Assembly (NCBI RefSeq): GCF_024223415.1
Contig: NZ_CP100500.1
DNA length: 64,000 nucleotides
Reading direction: 5' to 3' (one strand)
From: Escherichia coli
Lineage (GTDB): Bacteria > Pseudomonadota > Gammaproteobacteria > Enterobacterales > Enterobacteriaceae
A program made the position numbers and the translations under genes. Position 1 is the first letter of the stretch. Every line of letters starts with the position of its first letter. Positions 8,769 through 34,764 of this stretch are shown here, piece by piece. The notes beneath the pieces are model-generated. The model was given only the letters and a program-made list of their open reading frames with translations. It was not told the origin of the DNA and did no database searches.

Positions 8769-9729
8769 ATGTTTTCAATGATATTAAGCGGGCTAATTTG
8801 TGGTGCTCTGCTGGGATTTGTCATGCAGCGTGGGGGTTTTTGCGTTAATTCAGGCGGGCCTACTGACTTACGAAGCCGGGGCGTTCCCGTGGCTTGGTAC
8901 TGTTATAGGTGGGTATATCTTCGGGCTGGGAATTGTTCTGGCGGGTGGATGTGCCACCGGGACCTGGTATCGCGCGGGTGAGGGATTGATCGGCAGTTGG
9001 ATCGCGCTTTTCACTTATATGGTGATGAGTGCGGTGATGCGTTCTCCACACGCCAGTGGTTTAAATCAAACCTTGCAGCACTACACTACTGAACATAACT
9101 CTATTGCTGATACTTTTAATTTGTCTGTGTGGCCGTTGGTTGCCGTTTTGCTGGTGATAACGCTCTGGGTGGTGATGAAAGAGTTGAAGAAGCCAAAACT
9201 GAAAGTCGCGACCTTACCGCCGCGCCGAACCGGGATCGCTCATATTCTGTTTGAAAAACGCTGGCATCCCTTTGTCACTGCTGTACTCATCGGTTTGATT
9301 GCGCTTTTAGCCTGGCCCCTGAGTGAAGCAACCGGACGCATGTTTGGGTTAGGAATCACTTCCCCAACGGCCAATATTCTGCAATTTCTGGTCGCGGGTG
9401 ACGTGAAATACATTAACTGGGGCGTTTTCCTGGTGTTAGGGATCTTCGTGGGGTCATTTATTGCAGCCAAAGCGAGCCGTGAGTTCCGCGTTCGCGCAGC
9501 TGATGCACAAACAACAGTACGTAGCGGGTTAGGTGGTGTACTGATGGGCTTCGGTGCCAGTATTGCAGGTGGTTGCTCTATCGGTAATGGACTGGTTATG
9601 ACTGCAATGATGACCTGGCAGGGCTGGGTTGGCCTTGTATTTATGATTCTCGGAGTCTGGACTGCGTCCTGGCTTGTGTATGTTCGACCGCAGCGTAAGG
9701 CGCGACTGGCAACTGCTGCGGCAAATTAA
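8769..9729 (+). pseudogene. yeeE: YeeE/YedE-family thiosulfate transporter (TsuA) reading frame split by a frameshift or internal deletion
   Basis: ORF 8769..8981 (MFSMILSGLICGALLGFVMQRGGFC...) and ORF 8800..9729 are in different frames; downstream frame carries two GGC(A/S)xG repeat motifs; 961-nt span is not a multiple of 3. Confidence 0.6.
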
Positions 9730-16061: not shown

Positions 16062-16256
16062 TTACAGCAACTGGTGAGGGCTGGCATAAGTTGCCGGTGT
16101 TTCGGTAGAGTCACGGTCATCCACCACGCGGAGTGAATAACCTTTTTCAGCGGCCTTATTAATCAGTTCAGTGATATTAACACCATCAATGTCAACGGCA
16201 ATGTGCCCCATATCCAGCGCCTGTACGTTAACGCTGTCGGCTTCCAGTGTCATCAT
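16062..16256 (-). CDS. yeeW: Small prophage protein YeeW
   Basis: 64-aa ORF directly downstream of cbtA; start overlaps cbtA stop. Confidence 0.7.
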   Translation of the reverse strand: MMTLEADSVNVQALDMGHIAVDIDGVNITELINKAAEKGYSLRVVDDRDSTETPATYASPHQLL

Positions 16257-16626
16257 TTCGCCTCCGGATACTTACCCAGGGTAATGTTATTTACCGTTCT
16301 GTAATTGTCGCGGGTCATCAGGCCGGTCGCCCTGCGAGCCCGGAGGATATCGATGCTGTTTATTAACTGAGAGCGGGTACAGGCGCTGAATCCCGGCTGG
16401 TCGGTAGCACCAGCGCGTATTTTTCCACGAGAAAGTTCACCGCATCACACAGTGAAATGCCTGCCTCAATATGCTGCTCAATCACACGTTCATCGGCAAA
16501 AGGTGTGTCATTCAGTGTGAGGCCATAGTGCTGGTCCAGCAGTCGGGACAGCAGTATCTGCCAGATTTCAACAGGAGACGGGCGAGAACTGGTCGCCTGC
16601 CCGGGTAATACAGGTAATGTTTTCAT
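16253..16626 (-). pseudogene. cbtA: CbtA (YeeV) type IV toxin gene with a frameshift after codon ~80
   Basis: ORF 16363..16626 gives [36 protein letters not shown]...EKYALV then [14 protein letters not shown]; the +1 frame continues [50 protein letters not shown]. Confidence 0.8.
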
Positions 16627-20780: not shown

Positions 20781-21851
20781 TTATTTAATCCGGGCCATCG
20801 CGTTTCTCAGTGCCAAATCTGCCTCTTCCGTTATATCCAGGCTTTTCTGCAATACCGCCTCTGACCGGGTCAGTGCCTGACGTGCTGCCAAGGGGTTCCG
20901 GATATGCTCCATCGTCAGCATCGTGTCTTCATAGCCCTGCTGACGCCAGATGTCGGTATGTGCCGATGTAAAACTGAGCAGACCGCCACTTTTGCCTTCT
21001 TCCCCTGTGTGTTTCAGCCTTTTCCGGGGACGGATTTCAAGGATTGTGGTGTCCGGAAAAGCCCGGCGATCCCATAAAGAACCGTCACTCAGATGCGTCA
21101 CAATCACCATATTGCATCCGGCATCGACCAGAGGCGTTACAGGGGTATTTCCCTGCATATTTCGCCATCCTCCCATCCCACCATCACCGAACATTGTCCC
21201 CTGAACCTCACGGGGATGGAACAACAGGGGCAGTGCGGCTGACGCAAGCAGAGCCTCTTTCTGCTGTCCGCGGGGCAGACTCTGGATATGCTGAAAAACG
21301 GCGTTTTTCGTGGTTCCGGCACCCAGTTCAGCACGAATGCAGTCAATAATATCCTGCATGCCCCCTTCTGTGGGGTACAGCGACACATACAGCGGTAGCC
21401 CGTCTGCCAGAGCATCAGTATCAAGATAATGATCCATCAGCGCTGTCAGAGGCTCATCTGACAACAGCGGCTGAGCCATCGGATTGTCGAAGCCGTTGAT
21501 TATCGATATATGGCGAAGAAGTATCGTAAGCAGTGCTCCTGCACGTCCGGGGATCTGGCAGAGGTTCATTGCCTGGAACAATTTTTTCAGCAATGAAAAG
21601 TAAACCGATCGGTTTACCGACAGCACCTGATTATTCCCCAGATGATCCCAGAGCGCCTCCAGGCGTACGGCAGCTTCTGACAGATCGGGAGAGGCCGCGA
21701 TAATGGCACCATTGAATGCGCCAATGCTGGCCCCTGAAACCATGCTGATCTGTGTACCACACTCTGCCAGTGCCTTAACCACTCCCGCCTGATAAGCGCC
21801 CACCGCCCCGCCACCGGACAGCACCAGCCCCGTTTTCATTTCTGTACTCAT
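20781..21851 (-). CDS. Patatin-like phospholipase
   Basis: 356 aa; oxyanion-hole motif LSGGGAVGAYQAG, GxSxG nucleophile elbow (GASIGA), DGG motif (FGDGGMGG); ATG overlaps stop of upstream gene. Confidence 0.8.
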   Translation of the reverse strand: MSTEMKTGLVLSGGGAVGAYQAGVVKALAECGTQISMVSGASIGAFNGAIIAASPDLSEAAVRLEALWDHLGNNQVLSVNRSVYFSLLKKLFQAMNLCQIPGRAGALLTILLRHISIINGFDNPMAQPLLSDEPLTALMDHYLDTDALADGLPLYVSLYPTEGGMQDIIDCIRAELGAGTTKNAVFQHIQSLPRGQQKEALLASAALPLLFHPREVQGTMFGDGGMGGWRNMQGNTPVTPLVDAGCNMVIVTHLSDGSLWDRRAFPDTTILEIRPRKRLKHTGEEGKSGGLLSFTSAHTDIWRQQGYEDTMLTMEHIRNPLAARQALTRSEAVLQKSLDITEEADLALRNAMARIK

Positions 21852-22753
21852 GCAGCCCCCTTCTGAAATATTTCATCGACCATACTTTCAGAGAGGCGTT
21901 CTGCAGAGCAGAGGCGAGGCATGCGAACCGGTAAGTGTTCTGCAGCCTGCGTGGTTGACCAGATCACCGGATGCTGCTCTTCACTGCACCAGTCTCCCAG
22001 CCAGTTAATCGCGTCATGCCACTCGTTATCTGCCTGCTCCCGGCCCTGACCACCAAGCCAGTCCAGAGTGTTCAGACGCACGGTTGCACTACCGCCACTC
22101 TCCTGTGCCATCTGCGTTAATGCTTTATGTCTGAGAATATCCAGTAGCTGGTTAACCTGGCCTGTTTCGCTCTGACGTATCACATCACCAAACGCGCCCC
22201 AGCGAAGCTCTTCAAGTGCCACATAACAACGTCCGGCAGGGGAAAATGACGCATATCGCCCGGCGCTCCACCATGAGAATATCTGCTCAAGATGTAACTG
22301 CGCCCGCTGAACCTGGTCAACACGGTGGAGTTTTTCTTCAAGATGATTCAGTTTATGGTGAACCTGATCGGCCAGGGTGAGTAACTGCTCCCGCGTATCT
22401 GCGGAATAATGCGCCAGCCTGGCTGTATCACTGACCAGTGAACTGACCCTGTCGTTTACCCGGGTAATCGCGTAGTTTGTGGTGGCAAGTGACGTTGTCA
22501 TCTCCGTCAGCCAGCGCAGGGACGCCTCAACGCCCTGTGCAAGCGACGCATTGATGGCATTCTGCCGTGCAGCGCCTTCGCCGGTCAGCCCCTCTTTTAA
22601 ACGCCGGAAGAACGTGCGCTCTCCGGCCGTGCGGATATGCTCCTGTGCAACATCGATTCCGTTTGCGAAATCAACCACAAATTTTTCAGGAAGACAGGTG
22701 AGTACCTGACATACCCGGTTATCAGCAATTTGTTGAATAAATGGTGAAGTCAC
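21848..22753 (-). CDS. Hypothetical 301-aa helical protein, middle gene of the GTPase-patatin operon
   Basis: No P-loop; likely GTG start overlapping the GTPase stop (GTGA) and stop overlapping patatin start (ATGA). Confidence 0.6.
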   Translation of the reverse strand: MTSPFIQQIADNRVCQVLTCLPEKFVVDFANGIDVAQEHIRTAGERTFFRRLKEGLTGEGAARQNAINASLAQGVEASLRWLTEMTTSLATTNYAITRVNDRVSSLVSDTARLAHYSADTREQLLTLADQVHHKLNHLEEKLHRVDQVQRAQLHLEQIFSWWSAGRYASFSPAGRCYVALEELRWGAFGDVIRQSETGQVNQLLDILRHKALTQMAQESGGSATVRLNTLDWLGGQGREQADNEWHDAINWLGDWCSEEQHPVIWSTTQAAEHLPVRMPRLCSAERLSESMVDEIFQKGAA

Positions 22754-25146
22754 AGCATTGTCTCCAGCTCTTCCCTCAGCGCCTTACTGTCAGTAATGAG
22801 CTCAGGAACCCTTTCATTTAATGCCTGAAGTCGCCCGGTAAGTCGTTCCTGCGCCTGCTGATCGCGTTTATGATCTTCAGAGCTCTGAATCAGCGTGTTA
22901 CGCAGTTGTTCAACTTTCTCCCTGAATGCGCAGAAAAAGGCATCGATTTCCTGGCGGACGGGCTGGTTAATATCCTGCTCAATGGATGCCTGCAGCTCCC
23001 CGAAATATGCCCGGGTCAGTGACATAACTTCCTCTCTGACCTTGTTGATATTGATCACGCTGCGACTCACATCCTCGTCATAGTTTTCCCAGCCCAGGTC
23101 ACTGGTGCCAAACCATCGACAAACGGTTCCCCATACGCCACTCTGCCGACGGCGACGGGTGACGGTCTCCGTTCTTTCCTCCATAAGCGCACTCAGATTT
23201 ATTTTTACCGCGAGCCGGGTCTGTAACTGGCTGACTGCCGGAAAACTGATTTTTACGGTAAAGCCCTCATCCTCCAGGCGGGCATTGATGCGACCGGCAA
23301 TGTTTTCTGTGGCGTACAGGGCCGTGCCACGAAAACCTGTTTCAATCCCGCTGACGATTTTCTCCAGCTCAGGCCGGAACTGTGCTTCAGCCTCACGGTG
23401 CAGGCTGGTCACGGTCGATTCGATTTGCGTCATCAGTTCAAGGGCTTCCCTGCGATCACTGAATTTTATTTCGGGGCTGTCCGGGGCAAAATCTCGTTTC
23501 CTGTAATCCTCCCGGCCCTGGTTGTTGATACCGGACCATTGAGAAATTTTCCCCCATAATCCGGACTGAGACCTTCGTTGTTCTGCGTCTTCTTCCTCCA
23601 GCATTTGCTGTTCTTTGCGTTTACCGCTTCTGAAATAGTCATTCAGCTCCTCTTCCAGTGAGGTGCAGACCCCCGTCAGTAATTCCCGGGTTTTAGTATC
23701 GATCTCCTCCATGGCCATTCTGACATCAGTGGTCATCTGCTCCTGACAGTCCGCGATTTCCCGGATATCCGCAAGCAGGCTGGTGATATGCGACTGCAGT
23801 GACTGAATGCTTTGCTGTAGCCCCTGATGGCGTAACAACAGGTATTCACTGATATTTTCTGCATTCTGCATCAGTTTTGCGGCGGCAGAGTCAACCGCCA
23901 GTGCCGCAGCTCTGGAATGTGAGCTCTGTATGACTTCCGTTATCAGTTGATCGATAAGTGAGCCTTCCCACAGGTCTGTCGCCCCTTCAGTTGCCAGTTC
24001 ACTGTCTTTACAGACGTATTCTTTTTTCATGCAACCGAAGGCACCTCTGATAAAATCATCGACCCAGGCTTCATCAACAGGAAGGGTTCCGTTTTTCCGT
24101 AACTCATGAAGCGCACGGTTAGCCAGGTATGCCTGGCGTGAGGATCCGGGATAAACGCGGGAGGCGGGCAGCACATCGCTGTTCAGCATTGCCGGAACTT
24201 TCTGGCGTACGGCATCTGCCCCATCGCCATTGCGGTCTTTCTCATCAAATTTATTGACCAGTACAAACAGGCGGCCGGCTGATACGTCAGCAATGGCATT
24301 AAGCTCTTTACGGACGTCTTCATCCGCTTTTGAGTTCATCTGGGTGTAATCCATCACAGCCAGAACCGCAGAGGCTTTCTGCAGTTGATCCCGCATCATC
24401 ACTTCCATCTGCGGTTGTCCGGCCTCATTAGGGCCGGGGGTATCCAGCAGTGTGAGTGTTCCCTGGCATGCATCCATCCCCACCAGATGGCTGAATTCCA
24501 CGTCGATCACCGGCAGTTTCTGCACTTCTGCGTATTCATCAAAAGGAAATTCAGTCCCCATTGCCGCAGCAAGACGAACCAGATCGTTTAACGATGCCAG
24601 TCCGGTAAAGATTTCCTCCTCCCCGTGGTATTCATTTTTGAGCCAGCCATCATCCGTCAGAATATCCAGCAGTTCGCGGGTATCCCCGGTTTGCTGCAGG
24701 GTCTGTGCGACCTGCTGTCCTGCCGGGGTGGCGAGTTTTTCCTGCAGTGTGATTAATAAATTGCGGACAGGCTGAATATGTTCCAGATGGAGAACCGGCT
24801 CAGTTTTTCCGGGAACGTGGCGGATGAGCGTCGGTACAGAGGTCATGGGGCGGTTACGGTTAGGCAGAATTTCCTGCCCCACAATGGCGTTGATGGTGGT
24901 TGATTTGCCTGCTTTCATCGTGCCGACAACAGCCAGCACCATCTCCCTGCGGGCGGTTTTGATTTGTTCGCCCTCCAGCTCCTCAATTCTTTTCAGTGCT
25001 TTCTGTTTATCAAAAAGCAGTCTGTTTTCGTTCTTACTGTCAGATAACACATCTGGCTCCTCAACCATTTGCCGGAGCAGATTAATGTTCAGTTGCAAAA
25101 GTCGGTCGGCTTCATCACAAAGCAGGGCGATGTTCTTTTCGTGCAT
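22750..25146 (-). CDS. Large dynamin-like GTPase (798 aa)
   Basis: P-loop GTMKAGKST, switch II DTPG, G4 NKFD, then ~450 aa of predicted helical region; SD AGGAAGG upstream of ATG 25146. Confidence 0.75.
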   Translation of the reverse strand: MHEKNIALLCDEADRLLQLNINLLRQMVEEPDVLSDSKNENRLLFDKQKALKRIEELEGEQIKTARREMVLAVVGTMKAGKSTTINAIVGQEILPNRNRPMTSVPTLIRHVPGKTEPVLHLEHIQPVRNLLITLQEKLATPAGQQVAQTLQQTGDTRELLDILTDDGWLKNEYHGEEEIFTGLASLNDLVRLAAAMGTEFPFDEYAEVQKLPVIDVEFSHLVGMDACQGTLTLLDTPGPNEAGQPQMEVMMRDQLQKASAVLAVMDYTQMNSKADEDVRKELNAIADVSAGRLFVLVNKFDEKDRNGDGADAVRQKVPAMLNSDVLPASRVYPGSSRQAYLANRALHELRKNGTLPVDEAWVDDFIRGAFGCMKKEYVCKDSELATEGATDLWEGSLIDQLITEVIQSSHSRAAALAVDSAAAKLMQNAENISEYLLLRHQGLQQSIQSLQSHITSLLADIREIADCQEQMTTDVRMAMEEIDTKTRELLTGVCTSLEEELNDYFRSGKRKEQQMLEEEDAEQRRSQSGLWGKISQWSGINNQGREDYRKRDFAPDSPEIKFSDRREALELMTQIESTVTSLHREAEAQFRPELEKIVSGIETGFRGTALYATENIAGRINARLEDEGFTVKISFPAVSQLQTRLAVKINLSALMEERTETVTRRRRQSGVWGTVCRWFGTSDLGWENYDEDVSRSVININKVREEVMSLTRAYFGELQASIEQDINQPVRQEIDAFFCAFREKVEQLRNTLIQSSEDHKRDQQAQERLTGRLQALNERVPELITDSKALREELETML

Positions 25147-25207
25147 TATTTAACCTTCCTAAGACGCATTTTCATGACAACCACGGAGGAGGTCATTTAC
25201 TACAAAC

Positions 25208-25242
25208 GATCGTTTATAACGATCGATATGATAGTAACGATC
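25208..25242. promoter_or_regulatory. Cluster of three GATC (Dam) sites within repeated AACGATCG motifs in the leader of the GTPase operon
   Basis: aaacGATCgtttataacGATCgatatgatagtaacGATCgatac; GATC at 25208, 25221, 25239. Confidence 0.5.
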
Positions 25243-25363
25243 GATACATTCTATTAACTTGAGAAACACAACGCAAGGGGACAACCCGGGTATGGCTGCG
25301 TTTGCATAGTGTTTTCATGGAGTTAAAAATCTGTAACAACAGCCTGGTACATCACCACCGGGT

Positions 25364-26241
25364 TCAGAAGAAAATCCAGTTCCATACCGCGCGGGCAACA
25401 GAGACCACCGAGTCACGGACGGCGCGCAGAACCGTGCGTGCAACAGAGGCAATGCAGACGCTCTCCGCCGTGTCAAATATCCGGTCCACCGCACCGGTAA
25501 ACTGTTCACGGGCCTGAGACCGGACAGACTCCGTGCGCAGCTCGTCCTGCAGGCGGGTCATCAGGGGACTGGCGGCATGGTCGGGAAGTGCTGTCATGAG
25601 CGCACTGACCAGCGTATCCAGTTCCCAGCCGGTGCGGGCCGATACGGCAACAACCCGATGTACGGGCCGGAACAGACGGAATACCGCCTCCGTTTTTTCG
25701 CGAATGTTCTGTGCCTGTGCGGGAGAAGGCTGAATACCGGCCATATCCCATTCATGGCAGGGCTCCGTTTTATCGGCCTGCATCACCACAAACAGTACCC
25801 GCTGATGTCCCCGGTGCAGGATGTGTCGCCAGAAATACTCATCCACAGACAGGGCACGGTCATCGGCTTTAATCAGCCACAGTACCAGGTCCAGTTCGAG
25901 CAGAATGTCACGGTACAGGGCTTCATACTCTGCATCCCTGTCCCGGCTCTCGCCCACCCCACCCCGGGCAGGTCAGTGATAACCATGCTGTGACCATGGC
26001 CATTCAGACGGAAGCGCTGCACTTCCCGGGGGCCGGCGTGAACATCACTGACCGGGGTGACCTCCCCCTGAAACAGCGCATTACAGAGTGAGGATTTACC
26101 GGCCCCGCTTTTACCCATAATGCCAGGCACGGGTTCGTGACTGGTGAGTTTGCGCAGATGTTCCAGGATGTGACGGGAAAGTGAGTAAGGCAGGGAGGAG
26201 AGCGGTTTTTCAATTGCCTCAATGGCATCAGACGGATTCAT
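25364..26241 (-). pseudogene. yeeP: YeeP/YfjP/YkfA-family GTPase split by a 5-bp tandem duplication
   Basis: ORF 25873..26280 (P-loop GIMGKSGAGKSSLCNALF ... ITDLPGVGW) and ORF 25364..25957 (GESRDRDAEYEALY...) in different frames; junction reads cccggggtgggGTGGGcgagagc. Confidence 0.75.
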
Positions 26242-26324
26242 ACATGTATTCCCGGTGAAAAAAGACAAAACCCCGCGCACCGGAAAGGTGGCGGGGGATT
26301 CACGGAAATAATATCTGTCTGAAA

Positions 26325-31356: not shown

Positions 31357-31999
31357 CCAGCTTCACTTCGTCAATACGGTTCTCACTGCACGCTTACCAT
31401 TCTCTGCCAGGCATATGTCGATGTAATCCATAAACGATTTCAGCTTACCCCTTTTGTGGCCAGTCTTTCTGGCTGGCGGTTCAGGGGATGTTTTCTGGTT
31501 ATCGTGTACCACAAAGCAGGGATATTGCCCCGATAGTCACATTTCAGATTGATCGCGGTCTGAAGATGTGGCACTGAGGTAACGTGCTGGTGTCACTGGT
31601 ATTGCTGAAGTTATGGTTTTTCGGGGTCAGGTGAGCCTGTTGTGTGTATGCTTTTTGTTCAGGTCAGAGGGGGACTGTGTGGACAGCGGCTTTTGTCTCC
31701 GGGCATTCACGCCTGAACGATGAATGCGATTTTCAGCAATATTTGTCTTTGTGACACTCTCTGGTTGAGAAGCTAATGCGCGCCCCTGTTTCCACAGAGA
31801 ATGAGGCTTGCCATCAGCCGAAACATCAGTATTCCACGCCATACAGACGGCGCCTGACCATGTGCTGATGCAGGTAAAATGTTTCACTACAACTGTTCGG
31901 GTTGCTATGCAACGAAACAGCGATTCTCACGATCTTTAACTGCAACGTTTTTCCGCCTGAAAGTAAGCGTACAGCGAGGGCCGTATTGACGGGGATGTG

Positions 32000-33538
32000 T
32001 TATTCAGCTGGCAGTGCTATGCGCCACGGAAGCAGTTCGCTGACCCGGTTGACCGGCCAGTCTGCTATGACGCCAAGCACATGGCGAAGGTAGCTTTCTG
32101 GATCCACGTCATTCAGTTTGCACGTCCCTATCAGGCTGTACAGTAGCGCTCCCCGCTCACCACCATGGCCAGAGCCGAAGAACAGGAAGTTTTTACGACC
32201 CAGACTTACCGCCCGCAGGGCATTTTCAGCGATGTTGTTGTCGATTTCCACCCAGCCATCGTTCGCATAGTACGTCAGTGCCGGCCACTGGTTAAGTGCG
32301 TACGCGAACGCCTTCGCCAACTCTGAGTGTCGCGACAGGGTCTTCATCTTTTCACGCAACCAGCTTTCCAGGGATTTCAACAGCGGTTTCGTTTTTCGCT
32401 GACGTTCAGCAAGCCGCTGCTCTGCCGGCATTCCCCTTATATCCGCCTCTATGGCGTACAACTGACCGATCTGCTCCAGGGCTTCTTCCGTCAGTGCTGA
32501 CGGGATGCGGACGTGCACATCGTGGATCTTTCGGCGGGCATGAGCCCAGCAGGCAGCTTCCGTTATCCCACCATTGCGATACAGCTCGTTGAACCCGGCG
32601 TACGCATCCGCTTGCAGCACACCGCTGAAGCAAGCAAGATGAGTCTGCGGATGGATGCCTTTTCTGTCCGGGCTGTAAGCGAACCACACTGCAGGTGCCA
32701 ACGCTGACCCGGCATTGCGGTCATCACGAACATACGCCCACAACCGCCCGGTCTTCGTCTTCTTATTACCCGGCATCAGTACCTGGACCGGGGTATCATC
32801 GGCATGGAGTTTGCCGTCAGTCATGACATAGCCATGAAGCGCCTCTTCCAGCGGAGACAGCAGCCGGCAGCATGCATCCACCCAGCCCGACAGCAGTGAA
32901 CGGCTCAGCTCCACACCTTGCCGGCCGTATATTTCTGACTGGCGATACAGCGGGGTGTGCTCTGCATACTTCGAGGTCAGCACGCGGGCCAGCAGCCCCG
33001 GTCCGGCGATACCCCGCTCGATGGGCCGCGAAGGTGCAGGTGCCTGCACGATGGCATCGCACTGAGTACAGGCATGTTTTTCCCGTACCGTCCGGATAAC
33101 CCGGAAGGCGCTACGCATCAACTCCAGCTGTTCGGCGGTATCCTCGCCCAGATAGCTCAGTGAACCGCCGCAGTTCGGGCAGCACGGCGCCGCAGGCAAC
33201 AGTCGCTTTTCGTCACGGGGTAGTGATTCAGGGAACGGCTTACGGATGCGGGTCTGACGCAACGGACGCTGTACTGCCGGGTCATACACCCTACCAGTCA
33301 GCGTATCGCTCTCTTTCTGAAGCTGGTTCAGATCGGCTTCCATTTGTGCGATACGGCGGGAGACTTTTTCGGAACGACTGCCGAAGTTCATCCGGCGGAG
33401 TTTATCCAGCTGCGCCTGCAGATGGTCTATTTCGCGCTCCCGGTTGCTCAGCTTTTCCTGCAGGGCGTGGATCAGCGCTTCCTGTTCGGCCAGGCGCTGT
33501 TTCAGCAGGAAGATGTCGTCAGAAGAGATGTCGTTCAT
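32000..33538 (-). CDS. IS66-family transposase TnpC (second copy, diverged from the first)
   Basis: 512-aa [33 protein letters not shown]... Confidence 0.88.
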
Positions 33539-33587
33539 AAGCCCGTATTTTACCGGGCTTATTCTGTGACAACCAGGATAAAGAGAT

Positions 33588-33935
33588 TTACAGCATGGTC
33601 AGGGAGGTCAGCAGCCGCTTAGGCTGTCGCCAGTCGATACCTTCCAGCAGCATCGCCAGCTGCGCCTGTGTAAGGAACACTTTGCCATCACGGGCTGACG
33701 GCCAGGCGAAGCGCCCACGCTCCAGCCGTTTGGTCAGGAGGCACAGTCCGTCACCGGTGGACCACAGCAGTTTAACCTGACTGCCGCTGCGGCCCCGGAA
33801 AATGAAAACATGGCCGGACATGGGATCGTCTTTCAGCGCCGTCTGTACTTTCGCAGCCAGGCCGTTGAAGCCATTTCTCATATCGGTGATACCGGCAACC
33901 AGCCAAATTTTGGTCCCGGAAGGTAAAGGGATCAT
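33588..33935 (-). CDS. IS66-family TnpB (second copy)
   Basis: 115-aa ORF nearly identical to 29424..29771. Confidence 0.85.
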
Positions 33936-34333
33936 CGCTTCAGTTCCTGTATCAGCAGAGTCAGGAGCTTTTCGCTGACATTGCCATTGAAGCGGAGCGT
34001 CCCGTGCCGGAACGTTACCTCACAGCTGATACTGAGGGTTTCCGGGTCCTCTGCGAGCGATTCTGGCTGTTCGGCAGCTGCATCGAGAGTCACAGGAAGT
34101 AGCTGGGGGCTCTCTGAAGAAGGTAATAGCAGCTTTCCCTCGCGCCATTGTTGTCGCCATTTGAACAACAGATTGGCGTTAATGCCATTTTCAAGAGCAA
34201 GTTTTGAGATGGATATCCCGGGTTCACAGGAGGCAGCAACGAGCTGCTGTTTAAATTCGGGAGGATAATTAGGGCAGCCTTTTCGCCTGCCGGGAGTCAC
34301 ATTTTTCTGCATATCTGACACTTTGGTTCCCAC
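33932..34333 (-). CDS. IS66-family TnpA (second copy, diverged)
   Basis: 133-aa ORF overlapping orfB by 4 nt. Confidence 0.75.
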   Translation of the reverse strand: MGTKVSDMQKNVTPGRRKGCPNYPPEFKQQLVAASCEPGISISKLALENGINANLLFKWRQQWREGKLLLPSSESPQLLPVTLDAAAEQPESLAEDPETLSISCEVTFRHGTLRFNGNVSEKLLTLLIQELKR

Positions 34334-34764
34334 TACTTATTTGGTGGACACCACTTTGTCTAATTCGTCAGATTCTGACCAGACGGTTCAGGCTGTACGC
34401 TTACGCCTGAAAGCTGACTGCCTCCTGCTGAGGTGGGAGGCTATGATTCAGTGCGTTTATAGTCTCCGGGGTATGCATGTACCGGAGCATACCATTTCTG
34501 GTGGATAACAAGCCGGCACATTCAGACTGCAGTGAAGATGGAGGCACCTGGTTGTGAAGAACGTTTCTGCCCGTGGCTGCTTCGCATCATCAATGGTATT
34601 CATACCCGCTCAGAAATGACCGGGTGCTGAAGCCCTCCGTTATCGCGCAGTATAATGACGTATATGATCTGTGGACGAGTGAGCGGCGTGCCTGATGTAC
34701 GCCGCTATTACTGTATTTTACCACAGGGCTGGTTTTCTGCTGCCAGCCCTGTGGTTCTCAGACA

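Follow-up and report, generated by a model that had tools for sequence, protein, structure and literature searches.

A GTPase gene on the minus strand of the 64,000 nucleotide stretch of Escherichia coli DNA analysed here (the window) is divided between two reading frames. The question raised by this locus is whether the gene has truly been inactivated and, if it has, how the lesion arose and spread. The first-pass annotation read the gene as a GTPase of the YeeP family inactivated by a 5 bp tandem duplication. The comparisons presented here leave little doubt that this is a genuine loss-of-function allele of a yeeP orthologue, carried on an island of the CP4-44 type, probably born by slippage, of single recent origin and inherited in a small sublineage.

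Structure of the gene and its lesion

The gene, its reading frames and its motifs are located as follows.

25364..26241, minus strand: GTPase pseudogene, orthologue of yeeP, 878 bp (873 bp, encoding 290 aa, in the intact allele)
26092..26115, minus strand: G1 / P-loop GKSGAGKS, aa 43-50, from a motif scan and the MMR_HSR1 match
25963..25974, minus strand: G3 / switch II DLPG, aa 90-93, just upstream of, and overlapping, the duplicated block
25965-25953, minus strand: period-5 block GGGGT-GGGGT-GGG (GGGGTGGGGTGGG); intact alleles have GGGGT-GGG, 5 bases fewer
25873..26241, minus strand: truncated N-terminal reading frame, 95 native and 27 aberrant aa (WARAGTGMQSMKPCTVTFCSNWTWYCG), ending at TGA 25875-25873
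25364..25957, minus strand: out-of-frame C-terminal remnant, a mechanical ORF of 197 aa whose GTG start corresponds to codon V94 in the intact gene
25772..25783, minus strand: G4-equivalent MQAD, aa 152-155 of the intact protein, now out of frame

Read on the minus strand, the pseudogene starts at its 5' end with ATGAATCCG and finishes at its 3' end with TTCTTCTGA. Its two halves are offset from each other exactly as had been described, with an N-terminal frame running MNPS...GIMGKSGAGKSS...ITDLPGVG and a C-terminal frame that begins GESRDRDAEYEALY. In full, frame 0 is MNPSDAIEAIEK...EPVPGIMGKSGAGKSS...MVITDLPGVG, followed by WARAGTGMQSMKPCTVTFCSNWTWYCG and a premature stop after 122 codons, while the second frame, (V/M)GESRDRDAEYEALY...WNWIFF and a stop, reaches 25364. 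The minus strand around the junction reads ...ctgcccggggtggggtgggcgagagc..., the junction itself being ctgCCCGGGGTGGGGTGGGCGAGAGC. The string cccggg-gtggg-gtggg-cgagagc given for it in the first-pass annotation is correct as sequence, but is located at 25968-25946 and not at 25941-25960. Alignment places the 5-base gap at 25965-25961, and the single-copy counterpart of the block in intact alleles is GGGGTGGG. As had been predicted for the removal of one gtggg, taking out one 5-nt unit restores an unbroken 290-aa ORF. The repaired translation matches Pfam MMR_HSR1 with 49 bits, against a cut-off of 21.9.

Relative to the intact orthologue, the gene has a +5 nt indel and a premature stop, and is therefore a frameshift pseudogene. 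The frame is lost directly after the G3 motif (DLPGVG), with G4 and the C-terminal 195 residues out of frame in the window allele. A working GTPase would not be expected from the duplicated allele, since the truncated product would lack both G4 and those 195 residues. The repeat is not rare in itself: the window has 55 perfect 5 bp tandem repeats where about 62 are expected, and a single period-5 run of at least 13 nt where about 0.9 are expected. The case for the lesion therefore comes from comparison with orthologues, not from repeat statistics.

Comparison with intact alleles

A 1001 bp query around the gene has matches in 4,539 of 5,426 complete E. coli genomes. Among the matches listed for this query, strain Combat11I9 (NZ_CP021726.1) is the one that matches all 1001 bases, at 100%, while the remaining 39 span 996. 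An 81 bp query across the junction aligns at 93.8% identity, with a gap of 5 bases, in 4,106 of the 4,113 matching records. The strain S88 gene is an intact CDS of 873 bp, encoding WP_001069811.1, to which the window gene minus 5 bases is identical, with 0 mismatches over the 873 bp. This product, annotated as 'GTPase family protein', is found in strains S88, MB15 and AHM9C68I and is present on at least 1000 contigs. The intact allele has its island and its neighbours in common with the window, and differs in encoding a continuous 290 aa with G1 to G4 in frame.

A 40-mer across the duplication, designed to seed only if both repeat units are present, matches 2 of the 5,426 complete genomes, those of strains Combat11I9 and 181.1. 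A functional gene with the duplicated sequence would have spoken against inactivation; in this search no intact gene carries the duplication. It is likewise lacking in the intact orthologues and in the paralogues yfjP and ykfA, which bears out the proposed inactivation by a 5 bp duplication. The identical 878 bp are annotated by PGAP in strain Combat11I9 as 'GTPase family protein' and 'frameshifted'. The lesion is thus an ordinary lineage-specific frameshift pseudogene, already flagged in public annotation.

The 90%-identity protein cluster of the intact GTPase includes many partial 'Ag43 / AIDA repeat' autotransporter fragments, one of which is the cluster representative. They were probably drawn into the cluster artefactually, through fragments of the neighbouring flu gene at contig edges.

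Origin and spread of the allele

Within the intact sequence CCC-GGGGT-GGG-CGAG, a GGG microhomology recurs at a spacing of 5 nt. During replication, a single slipped-strand misalignment would duplicate the 5-nt unit and generate GGGGT-GGGGT-GGG, a step proposed from the microhomology only. The resulting +5 shift directly after G3 would leave a product of 95 native residues, with G1 and G3 only, and 27 aberrant residues up to the stop at 25875-25873. Translation in frame would reach neither G4 (MQAD), the guanine-specificity motif, nor the last 195 residues of the protein. The allele would have been born once, recently, on one island haplotype and passed down in a small E. coli sublineage, and in strain 181.1 the already-dead gene would later also have been struck by IS21/IS100.

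In the 9.5 kb around the gene, the duplication-bearing loci are 0 to 8 mismatches from the window, and the intact locus of strain MB15 differs by 5 SNPs. Since the close relatives MB15 and AHM9C68I are intact, the event is recent. Strains Combat11I9 and 181.1 have the island and several flanking chromosomal alleles in common: yeeA (WP_021541046.1), dacD (WP_021541047.1), a 961 bp tsuA frameshift and an IS66 TnpB (WP_064186576.1). None of these yeeA, dacD, tsuA-frameshift and TnpB alleles is found in the intact-gene strains MB15 and AHM9C68I. A single origin of the duplication in strains Combat11I9 and 181.1 is well supported.

In strain 181.1, nested IS21/IS100 elements also break the gene near nt 686, an insertion that fits relaxed selection on yeeP. 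Strain Combat11I9 was isolated from human urine in Hong Kong and strain 181.1 from a turkey in Canada. As a clonal marker, the 5 bp duplication could help to identify a small E. coli sublineage found in human urine, poultry and other samples. The allele also suggests that natural isolates, like K-12, can do without yeeP. Otherwise, this is one more decaying gene on a cryptic CP4-44-type island, and matters little beyond correct annotation.

Flanking sequences and the possibility of selected loss

The regions on either side of the gene contain the following features.

26271..26285, minus strand: terminator-like hairpin and T-run of the upstream 387-aa hypothetical ORF, its end some 30 nt upstream of the GTPase ATG
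25147..25363, minus strand: 217 bp spacer from the GTPase to the dynamin-family gene, with CGATCG cores and a sigma-70-like match
22750..25146, minus strand: dynamin-family (CrfC-like) gene, intact, 798 aa, scoring 556 bits against CrfC, under the cut-off of 1146
21848-22753: RdcB-family gene, 301 aa, its start overlapping the dynamin stop
20781-21851: patatin-like phospholipase gene, 356 aa

No promoter-like match was found between the hairpin (26271-26285) and the GTPase ATG (26241). The spacer on the other side has three AACGATCG/CGATCG cores, at 25205-25212, 25218-25225 and 25236-25243 (block 25205-25246). These make a 12-nt direct repeat (TAACGATCGATA, 2 copies) and a hairpin with an 8 bp stem (spacer part 25201-25284), and they overlap the only sigma-70-like match of the spacer, TTAATA-18-TATCAT at 25257-25228. 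Most of the SNPs among near-identical islands cluster in this spacer, with positions 25248-25246 being TGT, TAT, TAC or CAT across 12 genomes. The repeat region may act as an operator or a promoter, or may be a hotspot of mutation.

The three-gene module at 20781-25146 combines a pair paralogous to the chromosomal RdcA/RdcB-type genes with a lipase gene. PADLOC gave no confident defence-system match for the GTPase or for the module, the matches being weak ones at the level of the P-loop and of patatin. Its LeoBC model is matched by the GTPase with E=1.1e-5 and 22.8 bits over 80 of 601 model positions, and by the dynamin with E=8.6e-5, while the RdcB-family protein has no match to the PADLOC LeoA and LeoBC models. 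Assignment to the Eleos or 'Dynamins' (LeoA/LeoBC) anti-phage system was rejected, as the LeoBC matches are at the level of the P-loop only.

It is conceivable, although rather unlikely, that the inactivation is real and was selected, for example through relief of a cost or altered expression of the dynamin, RdcB and patatin genes, and is not neutral decay. The persistence of the allele and its spread over human urine in Hong Kong, a turkey in Canada and other samples would be in keeping with this, as would the accumulation of SNPs from near-identical islands in the operator-like spacer just downstream (25246-25248, four alleles) and the independent loss of yeeP in K-12. Clonal spread, however, requires no selection on yeeP, and in the complete genomes searched the intact allele is the prevailing one. 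The family has no known phenotype, and backgrounds with an intact gene also show the variation in the spacer. A more specific form of the idea, in which YeeP would work together with, or regulate, the dynamin/RdcB/patatin module immediately downstream and its loss would be adaptive, with tuning through the CGATCG operator or promoter, is very improbable.

Possible reversible switching or split-gene expression

Loss of function after a probable single slippage event can be set against two readings in which GTPase activity would be retained. In the first of these the repeat would act as a reversible on/off switch, either as a contingency locus or through programmed ribosomal frameshifting, with full-length GTPase in some cells. 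The tract is G-rich, and slippage back to one unit is conceivable for a tandem repeat. In true contingency loci, however, the tracts are long and their copy number is variable among close relatives. Here, just one or two units are observed, with the two-unit state in 2 of 5,426 complete genomes and on one haplotype, so that a tract of the contingency type is not seen. Repair of the frame on the ribosome would require a +1 or -2 shift, and no X XXY YYZ slippery heptamer was found at CTG CCC GGG GTG GGG TGG. No orthologue or paralogue shows the frame offset, so that programmed frameshifting, which would be expected to combine a conserved offset with a slippery site, has neither here. The gene in strain 181.1 has subsequently gained an IS insertion. 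A switch of either kind is therefore hardly credible.

The second reading has the 122-aa P-loop fragment and a 197-aa fragment, re-initiated at GTG 25957, together forming an active GTPase. There is a GTG in the downstream frame inside the duplicated block, preceded by G-rich sequence (CCCGGGGTGGG), and gene callers do call the 197-aa ORF. The break, however, lies within switch II, right behind G3, and leaves the N-terminal fragment with an aberrant tail of 27 aa. Gene callers also report the 197-aa ORF at contig edges where the duplication is absent, which marks it as a by-product of gene calling. The arrangement is conserved nowhere else and the C-terminal fragment is destroyed by the IS elements in strain 181.1. 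There is very little to recommend an active split GTPase over a pseudogene.

Other lesions and elements in the window

The duplication is not the only lesion in the window. The cbtA toxin gene at 16253-16626 (374 bp) and tsuA/yeeE at 8769-9729 (961 bp) are frameshifted according to the strain Combat11I9 annotation. The window aligns to strain Combat11I9 with 0 gaps at cbtA and tsuA and therefore has the same lesions. The cbtA gene is also frameshifted in strains 181.1, MB15 and AHM9C68I, and the antitoxin gene cbeA is intact. The tsuA frameshift is found only in the duplication-bearing pair Combat11I9 and 181.1 and not in strains MB15 and AHM9C68I.

The window also contains an insertion sequence.

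31963-34404, minus strand: IS66-family insertion, 2.44 kb, with TnpA (133 aa, 33932-34333), TnpB (115 aa, 33588-33935) and TnpC (512 aa, 32000-33538)

The flanks of this insertion overlap by about 10 bp, which resembles a target-site duplication. It is missing from the corresponding site in strains Combat11I9, 181.1, MB15 and AHM9C68I.

Independent carriers of the duplication

The window differs from strain Combat11I9 by 16 mismatches in 1-31963, and by 323 mismatches and 15 gap positions in the 29.6 kb at 34404-64000. Together with the additional IS66 element, the mismatches on the two sides led to the rejection of the possibility that the window is the strain Combat11I9 sequence itself. The region at 34404-64000 is far more diverged from strain Combat11I9 than 1-31963, which suggests a recombination boundary at or near the left part of the island. 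On the side of strain Combat11I9 that matches 34404-64000, yeeJ is annotated as frameshifted and a DMT transporter as interrupted by an internal stop. The window is also distinct from strain 181.1, so that three independent genomes have the lesion.

Further carriers are found among drafts and read sets. The exact 122-aa frameshift product is called as a gene in GCA_054663415.1 and in the Logan assemblies of ERR11813105, SRR12464869 and SRR36455807. The duplication is also present in GCA_014903915.1, GCA_007646745.1 and GCA_965254715.1, which were located through the 197-aa ORF. This brings the total to at least 10 independent assemblies, of which the 7 beyond the window and strains Combat11I9 and 181.1 are draft or read-derived. 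The 101 contigs with the 197-aa ORF were rejected as a count of carriers of the duplication. As the GTG at 25957 is the intact codon V94, this ORF is called at contig edges as well, and 7 of 10 contigs inspected are single-copy and cut at the contig edge, leaving 3 with the duplication. For the carriers known from short contigs, the extension of the single origin is weakly supported.

An intact frame in independent data would have contradicted the first-pass annotation; instead, the lesion is reproduced in independent sequence data. Although other annotated frameshifts within the 64 kb (cbtA, tsuA and yeeJ) might point to a noisy assembly, an artefact of sequencing or assembly, behind which the true genome would be single-copy and the gene intact, can practically be dismissed, given that the identical duplication recurs across these assemblies, which come from different laboratories and platforms and include three assembled directly from SRA read sets, that a 5-nt non-homopolymer insertion is atypical as a long-read error, and that the cbtA frameshift is common to four relatives and hence real too.

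Comparison with K-12 yeeP and related GTPases

K-12 yeeP and the window gene share 96.2% identity over 556 bp (K-12 2070659-2071214, window 25916-25361), and 96.9% across the 426 bp annotated as yeeP (b1999). The island occupies the cobU...tmaR/yeeA site, which is the CP4-44 site, in the K-12, Combat11I9, 181.1, MB15 and AHM9C68I annotations. On the strength of this identity, and by its position, the window gene is the true orthologue of K-12 yeeP.

The K-12 gene, in the cryptic prophage CP4-44, is a pseudogene like the window gene and lies at the shared chromosomal island site. The pseudogene status given for K-12 yeeP in the first-pass annotation was therefore right. A lesion common to the two was rejected, since the junction is wholly missing from K-12. 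Homology to K-12 starts only at window position 25916 (gene nt 326), which lies 37 nt beyond the repeat block, and the K-12 lesion is therefore a 5' deletion, independent of the duplication. In K-12 the 5' 325 nt, with the P-loop, G3 and the junction, are deleted beside yoeA/IS2; the window gene, by contrast, keeps its full length and has the 5 bp duplication. The 3' neighbours also differ, being isrC and flu (Ag43) in K-12 and the dynamin-family/RdcB-family/patatin-like module in the window. The K-12 pseudogene has been used as a neutral integration locus (PMC7677707).

The K-12 paralogues YfjP (CP4-57) and YkfA (CP4-6) can be aligned with the window gene end to end, at about 57% nucleotide identity. 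They are found at the corresponding backbone position of CP4-type islands and conserve GIMGKxGxGKSS, DLPGVGE and xQxDK. The G4-equivalent is TQAD in K-12 yeeP and SQSD in yfjP and ykfA. At the junction, both paralogues read CTGCCC-GGCGTGGGC-GAA, with one copy, and both genes are intact. They are directly followed by DUF932 genes (yfjQ and yafZ). No paper on the function of YeeP, YfjP or YkfA was found in the literature searched and, to our knowledge, the family is functionally uncharacterised.

Beyond these islands, the best solved-structure and NCBIfam matches over the G domain (aa ~40-220) are Era (7c1o, E=1.2e-5), Der and MnmE. The likeness to the Era, Der (EngA) and MnmE TRAFAC GTPases lies in the G domain. 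The scores are far under the equivalog cut-offs (43.7 against 237 bits for Era), and the window protein has neither a KH domain nor another partner domain. YeeP, YfjP and YkfA are a distinct family of island-borne, Era-like predicted GTPases. The placing of the window gene in the YeeP family by the first-pass annotation is upheld: its orthology, island position, G1, G3 and G4 motifs and full-length homology to the paralogues make it a member of this family.
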